Shown here: one piece after another, positions 2,906 through 55,933 of the stretch | Numbering within the stretch: position 1 is the first letter of the stretch | Layout of the letters: the number at the start of each line of letters is the position of its first letter | Assembly: GCA_934255455.1 (NCBI GenBank) | Contig: CAKQNS010000003.1 | Span: 38,666-102,665, forward strand | DNA: 64,000 nt | From: an uncultured Alphaproteobacteria bacterium | Lineage (GTDB): Bacteria; Pseudomonadota; Alphaproteobacteria; Rs-D84 | Direction of reading: 5' to 3' | Notes under the pieces: generated by a model | Told to the model about the DNA's origin: nothing | The model's database searches: none | What the model saw: only the letters and a program-made list of their open reading frames with translations | Translations under genes and position numbers: made by a program

Positions 2906-2930
2906 AAAACCGCCCCATGGGGCGGTTTTT
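2906..2930 (+). terminator. intrinsic terminator of ssb
   Basis: AAAAACCGCCCC-AT-GGGGCGGTTTTT. Confidence 0.75.
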
Positions 2931-2933
2931 CAG

Positions 2934-2961
2934 AGTTCAAATACCAAAGTTCAAAGTGCAT
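2934..2961 (+). repeat. 4-unit heptamer array, AGTTCAA type
   Basis: AGTTCAA ATACCAA AGTTCAA AGTGCAT, starting 3 nt after the ssb terminator. Confidence 0.7.
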
Positions 2962-2990: not shown

Positions 2991-3023
2991 AATAATGTGT
3001 GCGCCATTCGGCGCACTTTTTTT
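2991..3023 (+). terminator. hairpin/terminator module; its 27-nt core recurs inverted at 46878..46904
   Basis: AATAATGTGTGCGCC-ATTC-GGCGCACT followed by a T-run. Positions 2991..3017 are the exact reverse complement of 46878..46904. Confidence 0.6.
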
Positions 3024-27601: not shown

Positions 27602-29725
27602 TTATTTTGATGCGTTTATTGATTTTATCAATCCATTTATTGCAGACGGTAATACAGATTGCATGTCTAGTGCCTGGCATAATTCTTGTTTAGTCACGCC
27701 AACCTGCAAGCGCAGCATTTCCAAAGAAAAATATGCAAGTTCCGCTGATTCATTTGATTGTAAGAACTCGTAATGCATACACGATGCGTATTCGTTACCC
27801 ATGATACGTTTTAATTGATTTTGGGCGTCTTTCTTGTATGGGGCTATATCTTTTTGAAATTGTCTTATAAATTTATATGGCACAGAGTATTCTGCACAAT
27901 ATTTTGGCAGCCAGTACGTTATGGTGGCGTCAGTATGAAAAACTGTATACGCCCATAAAGCATCACGACTTTGTTTGAAACGCTGGGTTTGCGCATCGTC
28001 TTTCAGACACGCAGAACCAGTTTTCATGTTGTTTGCCAGTTGATTCAGCAATTTGTCATAATTCCCCTGTTTTACGTCCGTTTGAACTCTAAATACTTCT
28101 TTTTCAACCTCCGTCCAAATATCATCATCTGGATTAGTATGGTCTTCCCATTTGTCTAGACACTTGAAGCTGTTCATAAATTGCCAGAATACTGGTTTAG
28201 AATCATCAAATAGCACACGTGCATCGTTTTCATTGCCAGCAATTGTCATACATACTAGTGTAATTATAGTGTTTTTATACCCAACTATTGTATATAATGC
28301 TTTTGAATAAAATTTTATACCGACTTGCTCATAAGCATGCTCAGCTTCAATCATTAATGCGGGATTGGCGTCTGCTTGTGTGAATATTGAGCGCAAAATG
28401 TTGATTTTGTTTTCCAACAATCCATTCTTGATATCCGGCTCTAAGAGCACATACCTCCATTCATACGGCGACAAATTTTCTCCAACATCTATAATATTAA
28501 TAACACACGTGCGTCCGCGGCGTTCACCTGGACTGTTATATTTTTTATCATTAAATTTATATAAATTATTTGGGCTAATGCCGGGTTGTGGCTCCCACGT
28601 CTCTGGATATTCCACACGAATCTTGCGACCGTGTGTTTTCGGATCATTAGGATCAGATGTGTAAACACGCATATTTTTACTGAATGTCGGCTGTTTCACT
28701 TGTTGTGTGTATGTTTTTTTATACGGTTGGGGCGCGGTCGTCTGTAATTGTTCTAATACTTTTGCATCTATTTTTGCACGATTATTATTTGTTGATGGGT
28801 TTATTGTCGTGCTTTTTGTGTCTTCTGGAACGTATGTTGCAGGCGTGGCAACGCCACGCGTGAAGATACTATTTAACATGGAGTTTTTTGGAGCTTCGCG
28901 CATCCTGTAATAGCCCATATAATCGTATTCGGGCAATTTCCCTTCCGCACGCAAAAGTTGCCATTCGGTTTTTGGGTTATTGGGATCAGATGTGTAAACG
29001 CGCATATTTTTACTGAATGTTGGTTGGTTCACTTGTTGGGTGTATGTTTTTTTATACAGTTGGGGCGTGGCTGTCTGTAATTGTTCTAATACCTTTGCCT
29101 CTATTTTTGCACGATCATTATTTGTTGATGGGTTTGTCGTCGCACTTTTTGTGTCTTTGGGAACGTATGTTGCGGGCATGGCAACCCCACGCGTGAAAAC
29201 ACTATTTAACATGGATGGTTTGGGGGCCTCGCGCATCCTGTAATATCCCAGATAATCATAATCAGGAACCTCGTTCGTAAACACCATCATTTGCCATGCG
29301 GCCTTGTCTGGCTGTGTGGTGTTTAGTTTTGCATATTTCCCCAATGCCGGAAGATACATGTCAAACGGTATGACCTCTTTGTATCTTTCCACTGGGTCCA
29401 AGAAGAACGGGTCGCCGCGCTCGCCAGTTATAGGCCGACGAGCCCCCGCAACCCCAGCAAGGTTGCCCTGGCCATCGGATTTATAACCTGTTGAAAAATC
29501 AATCAGACCGCTTTCATCTTCTGGATTTACCTGTTCGACCCGCATTGGGTCATGCGTGCGAATATTTGTTGCGGGCAACACATCGTGCAGCGGGACCTTT
29601 GTCTTTTTTGCGGCCTGCAATGTAGGCTCGTGGGCACTGTATGATGATGCAATCGCCGACCAAGATAAAATTGATTGTAGTGCAGTACTAAAAAACAATG
29701 TTGATATAACGTATGCATATTTCAT
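27602..29725 (-). CDS. exported protein (707 aa) with a tandem 111-aa repeat, unknown function; low-GC island
   Basis: Signal peptide MKYAYVISTLFFSTALQS, two near-identical 111-aa repeats, and a C-terminal ~340-aa domain without recognisable motifs. Confidence 0.75.
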   Translation of the reverse strand: MKYAYVISTLFFSTALQSILSWSAIASSYSAHEPTLQAAKKTKVPLHDVLPATNIRTHDPMRVEQVNPEDESGLIDFSTGYKSDGQGNLAGVAGARRPITGERGDPFFLDPVERYKEVIPFDMYLPALGKYAKLNTTQPDKAAWQMMVFTNEVPDYDYLGYYRMREAPKPSMLNSVFTRGVAMPATYVPKDTKSATTNPSTNNDRAKIEAKVLEQLQTATPQLYKKTYTQQVNQPTFSKNMRVYTSDPNNPKTEWQLLRAEGKLPEYDYMGYYRMREAPKNSMLNSIFTRGVATPATYVPEDTKSTTINPSTNNNRAKIDAKVLEQLQTTAPQPYKKTYTQQVKQPTFSKNMRVYTSDPNDPKTHGRKIRVEYPETWEPQPGISPNNLYKFNDKKYNSPGERRGRTCVINIIDVGENLSPYEWRYVLLEPDIKNGLLENKINILRSIFTQADANPALMIEAEHAYEQVGIKFYSKALYTIVGYKNTIITLVCMTIAGNENDARVLFDDSKPVFWQFMNSFKCLDKWEDHTNPDDDIWTEVEKEVFRVQTDVKQGNYDKLLNQLANNMKTGSACLKDDAQTQRFKQSRDALWAYTVFHTDATITYWLPKYCAEYSVPYKFIRQFQKDIAPYKKDAQNQLKRIMGNEYASCMHYEFLQSNESAELAYFSLEMLRLQVGVTKQELCQALDMQSVLPSAINGLIKSINASK
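28634..29266 (-). repeat. tandem 333-bp intragenic duplication
   Basis: P(D/E)YDY(L/M)GYYRMREAPK ... NMRVYTSDPN(N/D)PKT occurs twice. The antisense pseudo-ORFs 28707..28910 and 29040..29243 are offset by exactly 333 nt. Confidence 0.85.
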
Positions 29726-31838: not shown

Positions 31839-33503
31839 TCAATCGTTATGCGTGGACCACGGGTCTTCGTTCATAATCAGATAATAAATTGATGGATTGT
31901 CGGTCCCGGGGTTGCGCAATATTGGCCGCACAACATATATATCAACATCGCATGCGTTGTTGTTTGCATCAGATTGCGTTTCGGTCAAATCTTGGTAAAA
32001 TTTTGCCGCCATATCCATGGCCTGCAAATATGCGGCATCGTCGTCGGCGGGACTGATTGTGTCGCCCAACCACATCAACCACATTCCATGATTGACAATG
32101 TTTTCTTGCCCCGCCAAGTCATCCGCCGACAGCAACAACAATGGTGCGAAATCAACGCCACTGGTGAATTCTCCGGTGCTGGTTTCGGTCCAATCGTACA
32201 TACCGCCAATAAATTTTATTGCGCCATATATTACGCCGCCGGTGGCCTCCATCTTGGCCAACATGCCGGCACTGCGCATGGTGGAATTGAACAGCCAATC
32301 GCGAATGCGACCTGATACGGCACTGCTGCGGGCAACGCGGGCCCCGCGGTTCAGCATTTTGTTGCCGGTGTTTGCCGCACGCAGCGCGCGCCAACCGCGC
32401 GCAACAACATTGCCACGCTGGGCGGTTTTCAGTCCGCGCAACGCGTGGCGATATTTGTTTATTTCGGCATAACTTTTTGTCGCCTGGGTGTATTGTTTAA
32501 CCTGGTCCGATGTTTGTTCCATTTCGCGCATAGATTTGGCCAAATCGGCAACCTGGTCCGATTTGCGTGCATATTCGGCGGCATTCGCGGCGCGATCTAT
32601 TTTCTTTAATTCTTCCGCTGCACGGGCGTATTGTTGCGACACACGGATATAGTCGCGAACCGCGTCGGTTTTTGCCAATGTGCGGATGGTACTGCCCAGG
32701 TTTTTCAGCGTTCGCGACGCGCGCGCGGCCTTGGTAGTGCCCAGCAAAACCGTGCCACCCCCGGCGGTCACAACGGTTATGGCCACATCCAGCCCTATTT
32801 CCAAATATGACACCCAACGCAAATCGGCATCGCCCGCGACGTAGTAGTCATTTGAATCGTCGTCCAATCCAACGGTTTTATGCATGGCCACATTTATCAT
32901 ATCGCTGTCGTTGGCAAACGCGCTTTTACTGGTACAACGATTGTTTTGCGGATACAATTCGTCAATGTTGTTTTTTATATATTCCAGTGAAATTGTGTGA
33001 TTTGTGCCGGCGGCGGCAAATCGGTCCAGGGCGCCATGTTGCACAACCATAATGGCATACCACGCCGGGTCGGTATTGGTCCATACGGCATTGTCCCCGT
33101 CGCCACCAATGCGCGGGCTGTCGCCCGCCGGTGGCATTGCGGCGCGCGTGGCCAACATTAAACGCTGGTGTAAAATCCTGGGTTGGGTTTCGTAATTGAT
33201 AACTATTTCGCGGCCGCCCGGAAAAGTGTATTTTATTGGCAAAAATTTCACTGTTTCGGTTATATCAATACCCGAAATTTCGGGGCACGCCAAAACAGTG
33301 CGCAATACATCGGCGTCGGCAAATGTTTTTTGCACCCATTGTTGAATAACAATTTCATCGTCGGTTTCAGAAACAGTATTCGCCGTTGCCGCCAACGCAT
33401 TTGCAAACGCCGCCGTCGCACATTCGGTGGTTTCAAGCATCGCACGTGCCGTAGTGGCCCACAGACATATACATAGTGCACAAAATGCGATTTGAATTCG
33501 CAT
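31839..33503 (-). CDS. exported/membrane protein (554 aa), unknown function
   Basis: Signal peptide ending ARA|M, a central hydrophobic segment, and a long A/R/K-rich helical region. The start lies 4 nt after the upstream stop. Confidence 0.7.
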   Translation of the reverse strand: MRIQIAFCALCICLWATTARAMLETTECATAAFANALAATANTVSETDDEIVIQQWVQKTFADADVLRTVLACPEISGIDITETVKFLPIKYTFPGGREIVINYETQPRILHQRLMLATRAAMPPAGDSPRIGGDGDNAVWTNTDPAWYAIMVVQHGALDRFAAAGTNHTISLEYIKNNIDELYPQNNRCTSKSAFANDSDMINVAMHKTVGLDDDSNDYYVAGDADLRWVSYLEIGLDVAITVVTAGGGTVLLGTTKAARASRTLKNLGSTIRTLAKTDAVRDYIRVSQQYARAAEELKKIDRAANAAEYARKSDQVADLAKSMREMEQTSDQVKQYTQATKSYAEINKYRHALRGLKTAQRGNVVARGWRALRAANTGNKMLNRGARVARSSAVSGRIRDWLFNSTMRSAGMLAKMEATGGVIYGAIKFIGGMYDWTETSTGEFTSGVDFAPLLLLSADDLAGQENIVNHGMWLMWLGDTISPADDDAAYLQAMDMAAKFYQDLTETQSDANNNACDVDIYVVRPILRNPGTDNPSIYYLIMNEDPWSTHND

Positions 33504-33507
33504 GTTT

Positions 33508-34719
33508 TTATTTCAATCCAAATCCTGTATCCGTGTTTTGTGTTCCACAGAAATCAATTATACGTTGACGCTCGGCCTGAATATTTTTAATGGCGGTCGC
33601 ATACGGGTCAGCGGTTGATGCCGCCCCCGGCGCATTTGGCGAAACTACGGCGGTGCCACCTGCCGCATTGCCATCAGATGTATAGCATGTATTACCAGAT
33701 TTTGTATATCCCGTTTTGCACACCCAATTCCAACAGAAATTTTCTGTGTCTGGTTGATATTCAATGTATTCTTCCAGACCACGCAATGGGGCCTCGCCGC
33801 AGAAACGATATTGGCATTCCGGTTCCCAAAAATCGTCTTGCCACAGACCGTCCCACCACGATAATTCCGTGTCAGACCATGTTTCAGAACCATTTTTTAT
33901 GTCACCCTGTAAACAGCGGCGCACGCCGTATGCAACTGGTTGACCATTGGAATCGTTCACGGCGCAAAACATATAGTCACCAATTTCCGCCTGGCGTTGC
34001 CCCTTGTTAAACGCGGTGTGACAGCATGTAAATGCGCCAGTAATCGGGTCATCCAAACAATCTGTTTCAGAAAATAATTGTGACCCAGTGATTACGCCGC
34101 CCAGGACCATGCCAACGCCCGCGCCAATAGCGGTGCCGATGGCCGGTACAAAACTGCCAACGCCGGCGCCAGCGGTACCCCCACCAACAACACCACTGAC
34201 AACATCCCAAGCGGAATGTTTTGTATTGCCAGATGTGGCCGAGACGACGGCGGCTGTGCCGCCAACAACCGCTACGCCGCCAGCAACCTTGGCCTTGGTG
34301 GACATACCCTTCCAATTGTTTTTGACTGCGGTACCAAAACCGGTTTTCGTGGTATTGGGCGTGTTGACAACCGCAGGTGCCGCACCAGCATTGTTGGGGG
34401 TTGATGGGGGCGCAGCAGCGGGCGCCGGTGCAGATGTCGCAGCTGGCGCAGTTGTCGTGGGGGCTGATGTAGATGTTGTTGTTGCTGTTGGCGCAGATGT
34501 CGCCGCCGGTGTGGTTGCCGGCGCGGCATTAGGATTTATACCATTCGCGGGCATTCCTGTTGTATTAATGAATTGGCCAGTTACGGCATCGCGCCATCTG
34601 TGGTCTGACAGGCTTTGTACTGGAACAACATTCGGGTCGTTCCAATTTAACGCCCACGCATCGCTCAATAATGCGCACAATGAACACAAACCGATAAAGC
34701 ACACACGATTAAATTTCAT
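33508..34719 (-). CDS. exported protein (403 aa) with a P/T/A-rich linker, glycine-zipper segment and Cys/Trp-rich C-terminal domain
   Basis: Start chosen at MKFNRVCFIGLCSLCALLS. Its ATG overlaps the upstream TGA (TGATG). Glycine zipper GVGSFVPAIGTAIGAGVGMVLGGVITG. Confidence 0.7.
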   Translation of the reverse strand: MKFNRVCFIGLCSLCALLSDAWALNWNDPNVVPVQSLSDHRWRDAVTGQFINTTGMPANGINPNAAPATTPAATSAPTATTTSTSAPTTTAPAATSAPAPAAAPPSTPNNAGAAPAVVNTPNTTKTGFGTAVKNNWKGMSTKAKVAGGVAVVGGTAAVVSATSGNTKHSAWDVVSGVVGGGTAGAGVGSFVPAIGTAIGAGVGMVLGGVITGSQLFSETDCLDDPITGAFTCCHTAFNKGQRQAEIGDYMFCAVNDSNGQPVAYGVRRCLQGDIKNGSETWSDTELSWWDGLWQDDFWEPECQYRFCGEAPLRGLEEYIEYQPDTENFCWNWVCKTGYTKSGNTCYTSDGNAAGGTAVVSPNAPGAASTADPYATAIKNIQAERQRIIDFCGTQNTDTGFGLK

Positions 34720-35624
34720 CAATATACCCCCTGGGTCTGACAACTGGTGAATGGGACGCCGGCCGATTGACATTTTTTCAGTGCCGCCAAATCGGCGTCC
34801 AATATCGCCAATTTTTGAAAATATTTTGTGCAATATGCGGCGCGACGCGATGCCTGGCGTTCGATATATTTTTCTTCGCTTTCGATGTTTAATTGGCGGT
34901 ATGCACTGGTATCTTTGTACGGCGCATATCCAGCGGCCGCGTTTTCCACGCGTTCGGTAAACGATGCATCGGCGATTGTTGTTGGAAATGCGGCGCGTTC
35001 AACATGTTCAGTGCCCGCACCATTTTGCGCCTGTAATGTTTCCAATGTTTCGGCACGTTGTTTCATTTCAGTGCCCCATTCCACGCCGTTCCATGTTGGC
35101 GATTGTGGTTCGTATGGATTATCTATTTTGAATTCAGAATTGGCCGATGCGTTGGCGGCGGTTGCCGTTGGAAATGCCGTTGCACGACCAGATTTTGGCG
35201 CCGCAATGGCATAGTTTGATTTATATTCGGCAAATGTGGTGTCAATAAAACCGGCGCATGGTGTCACATAGTTATGGTTTGGTAAACTGGCCAATTGCAC
35301 GGTCAATGCCGGGCGGGCGTCATCCAAACTGACCCCGATGCAATTGTTATGTGTTTGGCAATACGATGCAACCAATGCCGAAACAACACGTGCGCAATCG
35401 CCCGTGTCAACATCGGTGCCCTGGGCATATACTGGTTGGGGCATACGCTGGTTATACGGGCTGGACGGTGTCCAAAATGGATTAGACGAATAATTTTGCA
35501 CATTTTGAATTTGCCCATATTGCGACATAATCTTTGGCGTTGCGGCATTCAGCGCGCCCGCACCAAATAAAGAGCAAAGAGCAGAGAGCAGAGAGCAATG
35601 AAAAAATAGTTTATTTTTTATCAT
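34719..35624 (-). CDS. exported protein (301 aa), unknown function
   Basis: Signal peptide MIKNKLFFHCSLLSALCSLFGAGALNA|A. Residues CSLLSALCSL are encoded by the heptamer array 35571..35598. The ATG overlaps the four-helix-bundle gene stop (ATGA). Confidence 0.7.
   Translation of the reverse strand: MIKNKLFFHCSLLSALCSLFGAGALNAATPKIMSQYGQIQNVQNYSSNPFWTPSSPYNQRMPQPVYAQGTDVDTGDCARVVSALVASYCQTHNNCIGVSLDDARPALTVQLASLPNHNYVTPCAGFIDTTFAEYKSNYAIAAPKSGRATAFPTATAANASANSEFKIDNPYEPQSPTWNGVEWGTEMKQRAETLETLQAQNGAGTEHVERAAFPTTIADASFTERVENAAAGYAPYKDTSAYRQLNIESEEKYIERQASRRAAYCTKYFQKLAILDADLAALKKCQSAGVPFTSCQTQGVY
35571..35598 (+). repeat. 4-unit heptamer array, AGAGCAA type; downstream arm of cassette 2
   Basis: AGAGCAA AGAGCAG AGAGCAG AGAGCAA; inverted partner at 36010..36037. 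Confidence 0.8.
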
Positions 35625-36010
35625 CGTGTTTTTTCTTTTTTTGTGTTTTGTTCTGATTTAATATTCTTTTCAGTTGTTTTTGTTGTTGCCGCCAACATTC
35701 GTATCAGTTCTTTGCAATCACGGGTCATAGAATTGTACGATTTGTTGTCGATATAATCGGTTTCTTTCAGCAAGCACAGCCAGTACAAAGTCTCGGAACA
35801 TTCTTTGTAGGCGATGTATATTTTTGCCAGAAAGTCTGATTTTGTAATGGCGCAGTCCGCTTCGGATATATTGGCGCCAATACTGGTTCCAGAACGCAAA
35901 ATCTGTTTAGACAGAACAAACTCTTGCTGATTGGTGCACAAAAACTTGTACAGATTTATAATCCGTATCGCAAATTTTGTGCTTTTTTCCAGGGCTATGT
36001 TCTCTCTCAT
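35621..36010 (-). CDS. four-helix-bundle protein (TIGR02436 / '23S rRNA intervening sequence protein' / Avd-like family)
   Basis: VLSKQILRSGTSIGANISEADCAITKSDFLAKIYIAYKECSETLYWLCLLK is the family core. It is a paralogue of 54656..55039. Start chosen at MRENIALEK; the listed start at 36031 lies inside the repeat arm. Confidence 0.85.
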   Translation of the reverse strand: MRENIALEKSTKFAIRIINLYKFLCTNQQEFVLSKQILRSGTSIGANISEADCAITKSDFLAKIYIAYKECSETLYWLCLLKETDYIDNKSYNSMTRDCKELIRMLAATTKTTEKNIKSEQNTKKEKTR

Positions 36011-36037
36011 TGCTCTCTGCTCTCTGCGCATTGCTCT
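36010..36037 (-). repeat. 4-unit heptamer array, AGAGCAA type; upstream arm of cassette 2
   Basis: Minus strand: AGAGCAA TGCGCAG AGAGCAG AGAGCAA, running directly into the ATG. Confidence 0.8.
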
Positions 36038-36050
36038 CTTTTAATAATAA

Positions 36051-36521
36051 TTATATCAAAAATGCCATTGTTATTAAAGCCAAAATTATGCCGGTGATAA
36101 AGAACGGCGCAAACGGAATGTATTTCTGGTGTTTGGCGGTGGCCCACACGGCGCCGGTCACACATGCCACAATCAATGCCAGTGATACGCCCTGGACCCC
36201 GGCCCACACGCCGCCGGTTGCAATCAATTTTATATCGCCCATGCCAATTGGGGTGCTGGCATCTGGATTTTTCCAGCGGCGCACCGCATCAAACACAAAA
36301 CCGGTGCCGGCCGCCAATGCATATCCAAACGCCGCACCAATTGCCGCGCCGCGCGGCCCAACCGGCCAAACGAACCAATTTGTTATCAACAATCCAATCA
36401 GCATCAACGGCCACAGAAACGCATCGGGTATAATACGGCGGCGCAAATCGGCCCGTGAAATTTGCCACGCGCACCATAATGCAATGCCCAGTAAAATAAT
36501 GAAAAAGATTTGCCAAATCAT
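36051..36521 (-). CDS. A24-family prepilin peptidase (CpaA-like, no methyltransferase domain)
   Basis: RRRIIPD and GMGDIKLIATGG contain the two catalytic Asp motifs. 5-6 TM helices. Start chosen at MIWQIFF; the rest of the listed ORF is antisense to gcrA. Confidence 0.75.
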   Translation of the reverse strand: MIWQIFFIILLGIALWCAWQISRADLRRRIIPDAFLWPLMLIGLLITNWFVWPVGPRGAAIGAAFGYALAAGTGFVFDAVRRWKNPDASTPIGMGDIKLIATGGVWAGVQGVSLALIVACVTGAVWATAKHQKYIPFAPFFITGIILALITMAFLI

Positions 36522-36532
36522 ATTTTTCCCCC

Positions 36533-36562
36533 TTGCCTTTCGATTCGGAACTGTGATAGAAT
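36533..36562 (+). promoter_or_regulatory. sigma70-like promoter for gcrA
   Basis: TTGCCT, 18-nt spacer, TAGAAT. Confidence 0.4.
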
Positions 36563-36597
36563 TATACCATAAAAAGTACAACAGAGGTTGATATAAA

Positions 36598-37233
36598 ATG
36601 AGCAAGGGTTGGGATAACACAGCACTGAAAAAATTAAAAGCCCTGATGGGCAAGGGTTTGTCCACATCGGAAATCGGCAAAAAATTGGGCATCAGTAAAA
36701 ACGCCGTTGTTGGCAAATTGAACCGGTTGGGCTGGAACGCCAAGGCGGGTGCCACCGCGACAAAGACCGCAACGGAAAAAAAGACGACAAAATCGGCCGC
36801 ACCGGCCCCGGCTAAAAAGCCTGCGGTCAAGAAAACGACCACAAATGCAAAGCCAACCAAGGCAACCACAGCCAAGGCACCAGCGGTCAAACCAACCAAG
36901 ACCACACCTGCAAAGAAAGCGGCCCCGGACAAATCCATATCAGTCAAGGCCGTGCCCGCCAAGAAAGCGCCGGCCCCGGTCAAAAACCCGGCACCCAAGG
37001 CGCCGGCCAAGGAACCAAAATCGTTAAGCAATAAAACATTGGCCATGCACCAGCGTATAATCCAGCATTCGTTGGAAATGGCGAATTTGAAACCGAATCA
37101 GTGCCGTTGGCCAATTGGTGATCCGGATTCTGAAAATTTCCATTTCTGTGGTGAAACGGTGTTTGTGGGTAAACCATATTGCTATGAACACTGTAAACAG
37201 GCATATCAATTTACACCGCCAAAGAAAAAATAA
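36598..37233 (+). CDS. gcrA: GcrA cell-cycle regulator
   Basis: N-terminus W.N..LKKLKALMGKGLSTSEIGKKLGISKNAVVGKLNRLG and C-terminus CRWPIGDPDSENFHFCGETVFVGKPYCYEHCKQAYQ are the GcrA signatures. The linker is K/A/P-rich. Confidence 0.9.
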   Translation: MSKGWDNTALKKLKALMGKGLSTSEIGKKLGISKNAVVGKLNRLGWNAKAGATATKTATEKKTTKSAAPAPAKKPAVKKTTTNAKPTKATTAKAPAVKPTKTTPAKKAAPDKSISVKAVPAKKAPAPVKNPAPKAPAKEPKSLSNKTLAMHQRIIQHSLEMANLKPNQCRWPIGDPDSENFHFCGETVFVGKPYCYEHCKQAYQFTPPKKK

Positions 37234-44273: not shown

Positions 44274-44305
44274 TTGTTCTCTGCTCTCTCTTCTCTTTGC
44301 TCTCT
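44274..44305 (-). repeat. solo, degenerate heptamer array, AGAGCAA type
   Basis: The plus strand CATTGTTCTCTGCTCTCTCTTCTCTTTGCTCTCTT closely resembles the cassette-2 arm CATTGCTCTCTGCTCTCTGCGCATTGCTCTCTT at 36008..36040. Confidence 0.65.
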
Positions 44306-44332
44306 TAAAAAATGCCCCGTTGGGGGCATTTT
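44305..44332 (-). terminator. terminator of tig
   Basis: Minus strand: AATGCCCC-CAAC-GGGGCATT followed by TTTTTT. Confidence 0.75.
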
Positions 44333-46804: not shown

Positions 46805-46838
46805 AAAAATCCGTATGGTATTATAATACCATATATAA

Positions 46839-46866
46839 AGTTCAAAGTTCAGAGTTCAAAGTGCAA
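46839..46866 (+). repeat. 4-unit heptamer array, AGTTCAA type
   Basis: AGTTCAA AGTTCAG AGTTCAA AGTGCAA. Confidence 0.75.
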
Positions 46867-46877
46867 ATGAATAAAGT

Positions 46878-46904
46878 AGTGCGCCGAATGGCGCACACAT
46901 TATT
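46878..46904 (-). terminator. hairpin downstream of argS; exact inverted copy of 2991..3017
   Basis: The minus strand reads AATAATGTGTGCGCC-ATTC-GGCGCACT followed by a U-rich tract. Confidence 0.6.
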
Positions 46905-54212: not shown

Positions 54213-54614
54213 ATGTCGCGCAGAAGACAAAGAAATTCAGACGCCGCAATTTCATTGACGCCAATGATTGACATTATGACGGTGTTGTTGGCGGTGTTTA
54301 TGGTGACCACACCTATGATGACCACGGGCATTGATTTGGATTTGCCAAATGCCGGGCACACTACACTTACCGGGAATGACCACGCGATTCAGGTCAGTGT
54401 TGACGCATCGGGCCGGTACTATATTGGCGAAATGCAAATGTCGCGGGACGAAGTGGTTAAACGCGCAATCGCCATGCGTGGTGAAAACCCACAGTTGACT
54501 ATCATGATAAATGGTGACCGTCACGCGGATTATGGCGCGGTAATGTCGGTTATGGGCAAATTAAAGGACGCCGGTTTTCAGCGCGTTGGTCTGCGCACCC
54601 AGTTGGATAAATAA
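54213..54614 (+). CDS. tolR: ExbD/TolR biopolymer transport protein
   Basis: ISLTPMIDIMTVLLAVFMV with the conserved Asp in the TM, and a periplasmic ExbD fold. Confidence 0.8.
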   Translation: MSRRRQRNSDAAISLTPMIDIMTVLLAVFMVTTPMMTTGIDLDLPNAGHTTLTGNDHAIQVSVDASGRYYIGEMQMSRDEVVKRAIAMRGENPQLTIMINGDRHADYGAVMSVMGKLKDAGFQRVGLRTQLDK

Positions 54615-54615
54615 A

Positions 54616-54643
54616 AGTTCAAAGTGCAGAGTTCAAAGTTCAA
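54616..54643 (+). repeat. 4-unit heptamer array, AGTTCAA type; upstream arm of cassette 1
   Basis: AGTTCAA AGTGCAG AGTTCAA AGTTCAA, starting 2 nt after the tolR stop. Confidence 0.8.
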
Positions 54644-54655
54644 ACGGGGGCGCCG

Positions 54656-55039
54656 ATGAAAAACAATATCGCAATGAAAAAAAGTGAAGCGTTTGCACTG
54701 AGAGTGATAAAATTATATAATCATCTGACGGAAATTAAAAAGGAGTACGTGTTATCAAAACAAATTTTGCGGTCTGGTACAAGTATTGGTGCAAATTTAG
54801 CCGAGGCAGAATGTGCAATAACTAAAAAAGATTTTTTGGCCAAGGTTTATATAGCACTGAAAGAATGCGCAGAAACTCAGTATTGGTTGCGTCTGTTGAA
54901 AAATGCGAAATATTTAACCGCAACAGAATATAACAGTGTGTACAAGGACTGTAATGAAATTACAAGGATTTTGATGGCAACAACAAAAACAATAAATTTC
55001 AGGGATTCCGAGGACAAAACTTTGAACTCTGAACTTTGA
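54656..55039 (+). CDS. four-helix-bundle protein (TIGR02436 / '23S rRNA intervening sequence protein' / Avd-like family)
   Basis: VLSKQILRSGTSIGANLAEAECAITKKDFLAKVYIALKECAETQYWLRLLK. The last residues, TLNSEL, are encoded by the downstream repeat arm. Confidence 0.85.
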   Translation: MKNNIAMKKSEAFALRVIKLYNHLTEIKKEYVLSKQILRSGTSIGANLAEAECAITKKDFLAKVYIALKECAETQYWLRLLKNAKYLTATEYNSVYKDCNEITRILMATTKTINFRDSEDKTLNSEL

Positions 55040-55049
55040 ACTTTGAACT
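55022..55049 (-). repeat. 4-unit heptamer array, AGTTCAA type; downstream inverted arm of cassette 1
   Basis: Minus strand: AGTTCAA AGTTCAA AGTTCAG AGTTCAA. Confidence 0.8.
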
Positions 55050-55054
55050 TTATT

Positions 55055-55822: not shown

Positions 55823-55847
55823 AAAACGGGGCATTGCCCCGTTTTTT
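55821..55847 (+). terminator. terminator of the tol operon
   Basis: AAAAAACGGGGCA-TT-GCCCCGTTTTTT. Confidence 0.75.
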
Positions 55848-55850
55848 CAA

Positions 55851-55878
55851 AGTTCAGAGTTCAAAGTGCAAAGTTCAA
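55851..55878 (+). repeat. 4-unit heptamer array, AGTTCAA type (solo)
   Basis: AGTTCAG AGTTCAA AGTGCAA AGTTCAA, 3 nt after the terminator. Confidence 0.75.
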
Positions 55879-55933
55879 AGAATGTGTCCGCGGATCCAGG
55901 TTTGTTGATGTCGCGCGGCACGCGCCCATCCTA

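Follow-up and report, generated by a model that had tools for sequence, protein, structure and literature searches.

A heptamer-armed four-helix-bundle cassette in a protein-coding operon, with one arm translated as part of the predicted signal peptide of the next gene

The stretch analysed here (hereafter the window) comprises 64,000 nucleotides of contig CAKQNS010000003.1 from an uncultured alphaproteobacterium of the lineage Rs-D84 (assembly GCA_934255455.1, positions 38,666 to 102,665 of the forward strand). At positions 35566-36042 it carries a cassette in which a gene for a four-helix-bundle (4HB) protein of the 'S23p' family is bracketed by two inverted arrays of tandem heptamers, the upstream and downstream arms. 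The cassette is followed by the gene for a 301-aa secreted protein, and the downstream arm is translated as the hydrophobic region of its predicted signal peptide. In the reading that we favour, and which we hold to be probable, the element resembles the S23p-bearing intervening sequences (IVSs) of 23S rRNA, resides in a protein-coding operon, and gives the next gene its start codon and leader. Recruitment of the arm as an export signal is supported by comparison of homologous loci, which are given L numbers below, while their proteins are given P numbers.

Cassette architecture and the arm-encoded leader

Each arm of the cassette is composed of four heptamers (Table 1). The final A of the last upstream heptamer is also the A of the 4HB start codon, and the downstream arm is the reverse complement of the upstream arm except for two bases in the odd unit (26 of 28 positions). 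A repeat search extended the inverted repeat to 36 nt with 89% complementarity (35566-35601 and 36007-36042, with 405 nt between them), and the double heptamer AGAGCAR-AGAGCAR was found 6 times in the window vs 0 times in 100 shuffles. At the other end of the gene, the 4HB stop codon TGA (35623..35621) overlaps the ATG of the 301-aa gene (35624..35622) in the string CG-ATGA-TA. Reading of the sequence confirmed the coordinates, the heptamers of both arms and the ATGA overlap given in a preliminary description of this DNA. A longer 4HB reading frame from an ATG at 36031 (MRREQRAM...) was rejected, and the 129-aa reading preferred, because this start is absent in the orthologous loci L009 and L088.

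Analysis of the 301-aa protein indicated that residues C10-S18 (CSLLSALCS) are wholly encoded by the 28-nt arm, while L19-F20 come from the inverted-repeat extension; the preliminary claim that CSLLSALCSL is entirely heptamer-encoded holds for C10-S18 but not for L19. The n-region MIKNK has a charge of +2, the hydropathy exceeds 1.4 over residues 6-19, and the candidate cleavage sites GAGA/L or ALNA/A (the slash marks the cut) align with ADA/A and ALA/A of relatives. From the n-, h- and c-region features and the orthologue alignment, the signal peptide is predicted to span approximately residues 1-27. The predicted leader has the charged n-region, hydrophobic h-region, small-x-small motif and orthologue-matched position of a Sec type I signal peptide. 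The c-region ALNA/A and the cleavage site read as host sequence and not as cassette-derived sequence. A prepilin (class III) leader, prompted by the adjacent A24 peptidase gene, was rejected, as the protein has no G/F-x-x-x-E motif.

A hydrophobic N-terminal leader precedes the conserved block SQYGQIQNVQNYSSNPFW in all 120 closest homologues of the 301-aa protein. The only other methionine, M33, lies inside this block and would leave the protein without a leader; therefore, the long start (ATG 35624) is taken to be real, and the start at a downstream methionine, which the preliminary description had named as a possible refutation, found no support. The downstream arm is in the same reading frame in L009, L088, L006, and L089. 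Cassette-less relatives have their own Shine-Dalgarno sequence (GAGG in L003, GGGGGAGAG in L171) but the 301-aa gene of the window lacks one, from which we infer that its translation is coupled to that of the 4HB gene via the ATGA overlap.

The 4HB protein matches Pfam PF05635 (E 2e-28, 99 bits vs a cutoff of 33.8), TIGR02436 (E 1e-31, 109 bits vs a cutoff of 24) and the PDB entry 2RLD (E 5e-35), and it reads as a clear TIGR02436 member. The window holds a second cassette, between tolR and tolA, whose 4HB protein shares 62% identity with the first over 112 aa (tblastn) and 56% over the full-length alignment. The dN/dS values, 0.08 for the 4HB gene vs its L009 orthologue and 0.06 for the tol paralogue vs the orthologous cassette L039, indicate strong purifying selection on both proteins. 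The alignment upheld the shared core reported in the preliminary description, which is invariant between the paralogues. Its other two observations on this pair also stand: the tol cassette has the same layout with a different word (AGTTCAA), and each cassette contains one G/C-rich variant (TGCGCAG and AGTGCAG, respectively), in each case the second unit of the upstream arm. The tol downstream arm cannot be translated into tolA because it has a TGA in every frame. The last residues of the tol 4HB protein (TLNSEL) and its stop codon (55018-55039) are read from its own downstream arm, and in many other loci, too, the heptamer array starts before the 4HB stop codon. The gene tolA itself is bracketed by an inverted AGTTCAA pair, formed by the tol downstream arm (55018-55051) and a solo array (55846-55880).

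Assignment of the 4HB protein as the Avd of a diversity-generating retroelement (DGR) was rejected, since NF033474 gave no match for this protein and 21.7 bits (E 2e-4) vs a cutoff of 80 for the tol paralogue. No reverse transcriptase was found in the gene calls and precomputed Pfam matches around the cassette, a search that did not extend to the rest of the window. Likewise, neither a reverse transcriptase nor a template/variable-repeat layout was found beside the cassettes examined in detail, which are a part of all loci.

History of the leader and its recurrence in other gene families

The history of the leader was analysed in a neighbour-joining tree of the mature parts of the 301-aa family. 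Leaders of the SLLSALC type form one clade and one outlier (P0091), and all other leaders are unrelated to them; the arm-type leaders appear to be derived within the family. In the arm-leader clade, the full cassette is present in the window, L009, L008, and L088. L004 and L005 have no 4HB gene, but its last ~70 nt (ending in KELIRMISATTKATEKTSNRNQ and the stop codon), the spacer and the arm are retained, and in L004 this stump, spacer and arm align base for base with the window cassette. In L003, everything before the arm has been lost; its alignment with the cassette-bearing L009 starts at the arm, and it has gained a start codon of its own along with its GAGG Shine-Dalgarno sequence. Because of the 4HB stump in L004 and the arm alignment in L003, we conclude that the cassette was lost from these loci, not that it was never present. 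In the outlier L006, a 47%-identical orthologue, and its relative L089, the same intergenic site is occupied by a complete cassette, whose arms have the word AGAGCAA and whose junction overlap is GTGA. The cassette spacer is homologous in L013, L009, L004, and L006.

The preliminary description had left two directions open, namely recruitment of a repeat arm as an export signal and origin of the arm from signal-peptide coding sequence, and had counted the repeat in orthologues without a 4HB gene as evidence for ordinary coding sequence. Such orthologues were found (L003 and L004), but they descend from cassette-bearing loci and do not refute the reading. The direction from arm to leader is favoured by the restriction of arm leaders to one clade and one outlier, the L004 stump, the tie between the arrays and the 4HB family across phyla, and the recurrence of this leader with the cassette at an unrelated gene. 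The opposite direction is disfavoured, since the inverted arrays belong to the 4HB family and not to signal peptides.

A script that sought downstream open reading frames (ORFs) reading through an arm revealed further cases, all of them in Alphaproteobacteria. L013 differs in its flanks; its spacer GTGATAAAAAATAAATTATTC and the window spacer ATGATAAAAAATAAACTATTT are homologous, and the downstream 276-aa protein, which begins (V)IKNKLFFLSVIYALCSMLC, resembles the window protein in these 19 residues only, with the segment IKNKLFF and the arm leader heading an otherwise unrelated protein. Close relatives in the 276-aa family have long leaders with 7-residue repeats, such as P0126 with ALCSLLFALCGLLFALC. 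The P0126 locus (L169) contains at 85-165 a gene-less arm pair, consisting of the AGAGCAA array AGAGCAAAGAGCAAAGAGC, 45 nt, and the TTGCTCT array TGCTCTTTGCTCTTTG, and six TTGCTCT units form the leader of the gene right after it. This pair looks like a cassette derivative resembling a miniature inverted-repeat transposable element (MITE). L077 (from the same species as the window), L170, and L082 share another such junction: the ATG for a secreted protein of 542-558 aa overlaps the 4HB TGA, and a TATTATC arm encodes the leader of this protein (YYLLSIIYALLS / MKSHYYLLSIIYALLS). Nearly all of the top 120 homologues retain this leader, and in L171 it is encoded by five intact heptamers without any 4HB gene. 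The 276-aa and 542-aa proteins have no Pfam match. A 7-residue periodicity score was tried as a quick detector of arm-derived leaders and dropped as too insensitive. Comparison of these loci indicates that start codon, n-region and h-region together form a transferable module at the 3' end of the cassette, and that this module outlives the cassette. The preliminary description had missed that the start codon and n-region are also cassette-borne, that at least three gene families show this design, and that the cassette is constructed like an S23p-type IVS of 23S rRNA.

Heptamer arms across the family, the predicted transcript and rival explanations

A scan of species-representative genomes gave 80 loci with 4HB genes 50-84% identical, which span Clostridia, Bacteroidota, Akkermansia, Microcystis, Fibrobacterales, Kiritimatiellia, Lentisphaerales, Endomicrobia, Acidobacteriota, Ignavibacteria, and Alphaproteobacteria. 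Complementary tandem arrays bracket almost every one of these loci, and the best tandem period was 7 in 53 of the 80 upstream flanks and 56 of the 80 downstream flanks vs 21 of 399 control windows. Across some 160 homologous loci, which represent more than 10 phyla, inverted period-7 arrays accompany nearly all 4HB genes; a metagenome scan and a single viral match repeat this pattern. The words vary by locus (AGGAATT, AGGAGTT, GGAGTGT, AGAGTGA, ATCAGTA, AATGGTC, GGGATAA, and others), and the upstream arms are purine-rich (70%). Among 4HB pairs with at least 70% identity, 63-65% share a 7-mer, vs 1-6% of the pairs below 60% (Mantel p 5e-4), and the sharing includes cross-phylum pairs, such as Muribaculaceae and Ruminococcus. 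These patterns indicate that the heptamer word is co-inherited with the 4HB protein. The upstream arm of the window cassette differs from that of L009 at 2 of 28 nt where the dS of the gene is 1.5; by this comparison the arrays have changed far less than synonymous sites. Upstream arms of great length, with up to ~13 heptamers, occur at some loci (L131, L132, L057, and L151; L131 has a higher-order 21-nt periodicity), which indicates active array expansion.

In the tol-pal operon of alphaproteobacterial lineages, 4HB cassettes with AGTTCAA/AGTGCAA words occupy differing intergenic positions (ybgC-tolQ, upstream of ybgC, and tolR-tolA in L011, L045, L039, and the window), and L045 has two cassettes. 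Inverted CGAATCA arrays in L011 (137-167 and 3409-3432), located 3.2 kb apart, span ybgC, a 4HB cassette with another word, and tolQ, which shows that much larger segments can lie within an array pair. A phage vector was rejected, as a relative (also heptamer-armed) was found on one IMG/VR contig only and there were no PHROG matches, and the cassette is not typically a phage gene.

The window also contains four solo arrays, which use only the two resident cassette words (AGAGCAA and AGTTCAA). Three of the four directly follow terminator T-tracts, and the arrays end in AATG(A) like the upstream arms. They look like truncated cassettes, which is likely for the array at 44274..44306, and they could also be binding or landing sites. 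No locus orthologous to this 44.3-kb array was present among the loci fetched. Near two of the solo arrays, at 2996-3013 and 46880-46897, there is a GC-rich hairpin (GTGCGCCATTCGGCGCAC and its reverse complement) with the shared flank AATAATGTGT, which may be a repeated terminator-like element. A further repeat at 28635-29272, a 333-bp unit in 1.9 tandem copies with 86% identity (Tandem Repeats Finder [TRF] score 961), lies inside a 707-aa ORF (27602..29725, minus strand).

The cassette is flanked by a prepilin-peptidase (A24) gene and the secreted-protein gene. The peptidase is followed by a run of three genes, comprising the 301-aa gene and two genes at 31839-34722 (minus strand) for unannotated proteins with unusually Cys-rich leaders (MKFNRVCFIGLCSLCALLSDAWA; MRIQIAFCALCICLWATTARA), the DNA of which is not 7-periodic. 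The mechanically called prepilin-peptidase ORF (36051-37046, minus strand, 331 aa) has a low-complexity N-terminal extension overlapping the opposite-strand GcrA gene, which adjoins the cassette neighbourhood (PF07750 in orthologous loci); since the orthologues are called at 154-157 aa, the true start is therefore taken to be internal. The GC content of the window is 47.7%, and an Rfam scan of it returned tRNAs only. An identical 301-aa protein is present in Hadza and other human-gut metagenomes, on contigs of up to 234 kb, and those homologues that have a source name are labelled Alphaproteobacteria or Rickettsiales; together with the GcrA gene, this marks the source as an uncultured alphaproteobacterium of the gut.

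Table 1. Coordinates of the two cassettes, the solo arrays and the promoter-like site in the window
Feature	Position	Strand	Description	Basis or remark
Upstream arm	36010..36037	-	four tandem heptamers AGAGCAA TGCGCAG AGAGCAG AGAGCAA	sequence reading; TRF period 7
4HB gene	35621..36010	-	129 aa, PF05635/TIGR02436, 'S23p' family	
Cassette 3' spacer	35599..35624	-	holds ATG of 301-aa gene; encodes n-region MIKNKLFFH	
Downstream arm	35571..35598	-	TTGCTCT CTGCTCT CTGCTCT TTGCTCT	TRF period 7; translated as predicted signal-peptide h-region
301-aa gene	34719..35624	-	secreted protein	no Pfam or NCBIfam match
Promoter-like site	36050..36077	-	TTAATA, 16 nt, TG-n-TATAAT; in last codons of prepilin-peptidase gene	consensus match only
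tol upstream arm	54614..54644	+	word AGTTCAA	TRF
tol 4HB gene	54656..55039	+	127 aa, between tolR and tolA	
tol downstream arm	55018..55051	+	TTGAACT units	TRF; TGA in every frame
Solo AGAGCAA-type array	44274..44306	-	ends in CAATGA; no 4HB gene	directly after intrinsic terminator
Solo AGTTCAA array	55846..55880	+	5 units	directly after tolA terminator
Solo AGTTCAA array	46837..46867	+	4.4 units	intergenic
Solo AGTTCAA array, degenerate	2929..2957	+		directly after intrinsic terminator

A consensus search found a promoter-like site upstream of the cassette and none within it on the coding (minus) strand; therefore, the 301-aa gene is probably transcribed through both arms. The string TTTTTG(A/T)TATAAT is retained in cassette-less orthologues. 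In the predicted RNA fold, the arms close a stem of ~40 bp that appears in both the minimum free energy (MFE) and the centroid structures (MFE -144.5 kcal/mol, z -7.65), and the predicted fold of the tol cassette is also closed by its arms (z -2.8). Comparison of the window clade with the L006/L089 clade revealed a pairing-preserving change from G-C to A-T at the unit ends. The position of the odd TGCGCA unit varies: it is the second upstream unit (U2) in the window, L006, and L089, and it is also found at D3' in L089 and at D4' in L088. In L089, the TTGCGCA unit of the downstream arm exactly complements the odd TGCGCAA unit.

In the favoured reading, the 3' end of the cassette hands the next gene its ATG, the n-region MIKNKLFFH and a predicted Sec h-region read from the pyrimidine-rich downstream arm. 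In the transcript, the arms (a 28-36-bp inverted repeat) would pair and bury both the 4HB start codon and the signal-peptide codons, and by analogy with the intervening sequences of Coxiella and Leptospira the arm stem may be an RNase III substrate. This arrangement would provide post-transcriptional control, with the stem open while ribosomes load on the 4HB gene and otherwise closed or cleaved.

Several points weigh against this reading. Both the stem and its cleavage by RNase III are predictions, and complete cleavage would destroy the 301-aa mRNA, so that cleavage would have to be partial, prevented by translation, or absent. The arm mismatches are not enriched in G:U on the sense strand (31 of G:U type vs 44 of A:C type, p 0.17); selection at the RNA level is therefore not told apart from a process at the DNA level. 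Most of the arm mismatches are differences in unit order, which suggests array turnover rather than base-by-base compensation. Given the lack of G:U bias and an odd unit that hops between arms, DNA-level exchange and protein binding are live alternatives. As to the timing, more distant members of the 301-aa family often have the motif h-x-x-L-C in their leaders, and the insertion may thus be older than the tree suggests; some arrays may even precede the cassette, as the array of the cassette-less L171 keeps a perfect 7-nt periodicity.

Four other explanations were weighed. If the array were ordinary signal-peptide coding sequence, its inverted copy upstream of the 4HB gene would be a coincidence. 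The persistence of the repeat in L003 and L004 without a 4HB gene and the Cys/Ser/Leu-rich leaders of the neighbouring secreted proteins would suit this explanation; however, shuffled sequences give zero expectation for a 36-nt, 89% inverted repeat with period-7 arrays on either side, about 160 homologous genes are set in the same architecture, L004 keeps a 4HB stump, and most orthologues have unrelated leaders. The family-wide survey has already refuted coincidence, to which we give practically no credence. It is very improbable, too, that the signal peptide came first and the arms are target-derived, the cassette integrating at a pre-existing array or pyrimidine-rich leader DNA and copying it in inverted form. 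This would explain why the solo arrays in the window use exactly the two resident cassette words, why the L171 leader has an intact five-unit array and no cassette, and why two distant lineages of the 301-aa family have an identical cassette site. Yet the word follows the phylogeny of the 4HB protein and not the locus, the same word and n-region spacer occur at unrelated genes, the related words AGTTCAA/AGTGCAA recur in three different intergenic regions of the tol operon, a 7-nt period is not a property of ordinary signal-peptide DNA, and arms are present in phyla where they are never translated.

The arms might instead have a role at the level of DNA, either in mobilisation, as terminal inverted repeats, or in an invertible switch, as its crossover sites. 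In the switch version, inversion would disconnect the start codon and n-region, which lie between the arms, and turn the secreted protein off (phase variation). The inverted repeats of 28-36 nt placed ~400 bp apart have the geometry of gut-bacterial invertons, the occurrence of the odd TGCGCA unit in either arm among orthologues suggests inter-arm exchange, the mismatches have no G:U bias, and spread across phyla with the arms attached points to a mobile DNA unit. On the other hand, no recombinase or transposase was found within or next to the cassettes, a single site-specific enzyme could not serve such diverse heptamer words, and the 4HB gene is co-oriented with the host operon in the cases examined in detail. 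Only one orientation relative to the flanks was seen at the 6 of 6 prepilin-peptidase-site loci and in 37 of 37 metagenome assemblies of one human-gut cassette, consensus assemblies being able to hide minority orientations. We regard a DNA-level role as unlikely. A somewhat better case, though still a minority view, can be made for the arrays being iterons bound by the cognate 4HB protein (a pentamer related to Avd, which binds nucleic acids) for self-regulation and for action at the solo arrays. Word and protein co-vary, no word other than those of the two paralogues is present in the four solo arrays, three of which lie directly against terminator T-tracts, the 4HB protein is under strong purifying selection, and there is the weak DGR Avd match (NF033474, E 2e-4). 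Against this, co-variation is equally explained by co-inheritance, the solo arrays resemble truncated cassettes in ending CAATG(A) like upstream arms, and the binding is putative, with no specificity residues identified. The iteron view is compatible with the favoured reading of a leader-giving cassette.

Comparison with known systems

Tandem heptamers are known from cyanobacteria as the short tandemly repeated repetitive (STRR) sequences, reportedly described by Mazel et al. in 1990. TAACTGA direct repeats have been described in Beggiatoaceae, cyanobacteria and Bacteroidetes (MacGregor 2015, PMC4679880). Like the arms, these arrays consist of 2-6 direct heptamers, are mostly intergenic, end in most cases just upstream of a start codon, and are patchy across phyla; the Microcystis 4HB genes of L057 and L059 have TAACTGA-type arrays as both arms. 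They were described as direct arrays, whereas here they form inverted pairs around a gene, and S23p/4HB genes are not mentioned in that article and its supplement. Our survey ties the orphan tandem heptamers of cyanobacteria and Beggiatoaceae to a protein family and may explain them. We put forward tentatively, as a possibility short of an expectation, that TIGR02436 genes with inverted heptamer arrays constitute an unrecognised, phylum-spanning class of autonomous selfish or regulatory cassettes. The rRNA intervening sequences would be a special case of this class, each 4HB protein would read its own word in RNA or DNA form, the solo STRR/TAACTGA arrays would be footprints of the cassette or its binding sites, and the cassette of gut Alphaproteobacteria would have turned into a portable leader module with translational coupling. 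If this is true, the module would give any downstream gene a start codon and a signal peptide under cassette control.

Selfish repeats that are translated within host proteins have a precedent in the Rickettsia palindromic elements (RPEs), reportedly found by Ogata et al. in 2000 to be inserted in frame in protein-coding genes. PMC1458961 and PMC10969869 also mention RPEs. The likeness lies in selfish repeat or palindromic DNA of an alphaproteobacterium that is translated within host proteins. RPEs differ in being non-coding, MITE-like and located inside ORFs as extra surface segments, whereas the functional 5' module described here (start codon, n-region and h-region of a signal peptide) comes from the arm of a cassette that carries a gene. 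Such exaptation, in which the arm and 3' spacer become the Sec start codon, n-region and h-region in at least three unrelated secreted-protein families, also after cassette loss, would be a documented route for selfish DNA to create or replace export signals. For annotation, gene callers may pick wrong starts at such junctions, and a 7-residue periodicity of a leader can betray a former cassette.

Invertons, which comprise invertible promoters and the shufflons of gut bacteria, have inverted repeats of 20-35 nt placed a few hundred bp apart before genes for surface or secreted proteins. The window cassette is similar in repeat size, spacing, and position upstream of a secreted-protein gene. 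It differs in that no invertase is nearby, its repeats consist of tandem heptamers whose words are many and various, a conserved protein gene fills the interior, and no orientation polymorphism was seen in the consensus assemblies.

The closest likeness in construction is to the S23p intervening sequences. The IVS in the 23S rRNA of Coxiella burnetii has a 28-bp terminal stem and an S23p ORF, with three tandem GACAGAT heptamers and a degenerate fourth directly before the ATG; the number of heptamers is strain-variable, and RNase III cuts within the stem (PMC4990558). An S23p-bearing IVS has also been reported in Leptospira (Ralph & McClelland 1993, as cited in PMC4990558). In the literature found, heptamers occur together with S23p in the Coxiella paper only, and full-text literature searches, whose coverage excludes subscription journals, returned no description of a heptamer-armed operon cassette or of arm-encoded signal peptides. 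The shared features are a PF05635 ORF, terminal repeats able to form a stem of ~28 bp, 3-4 tandem heptamers before the ATG, an element of ~430-480 nt, a variable heptamer copy number, and a sporadic distribution that suggests horizontal transfer. The window cassette differs in lying between protein-coding genes and not in helix 25 or 45 of 23S rRNA, and in the translation of one arm as part of the neighbouring gene. Strong purifying selection acts on the protein here (dN/dS 0.06-0.08), in contrast to its decaying, unexpressed counterpart in Coxiella, and RNase III excision, if it occurred by analogy and were complete, would be harmful in the window operon. The S23p IVS, a puzzle since the early 1990s, becomes testable in this light, with the rRNA cases as possibly one landing site of a general element. 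What is new here is the operon context, the cross-phylum generality of inverted heptamer arms, and the repeated use of an arm as a signal peptide; judged from its sequence, the window cassette is built like an S23p IVS but is not an rRNA IVS.

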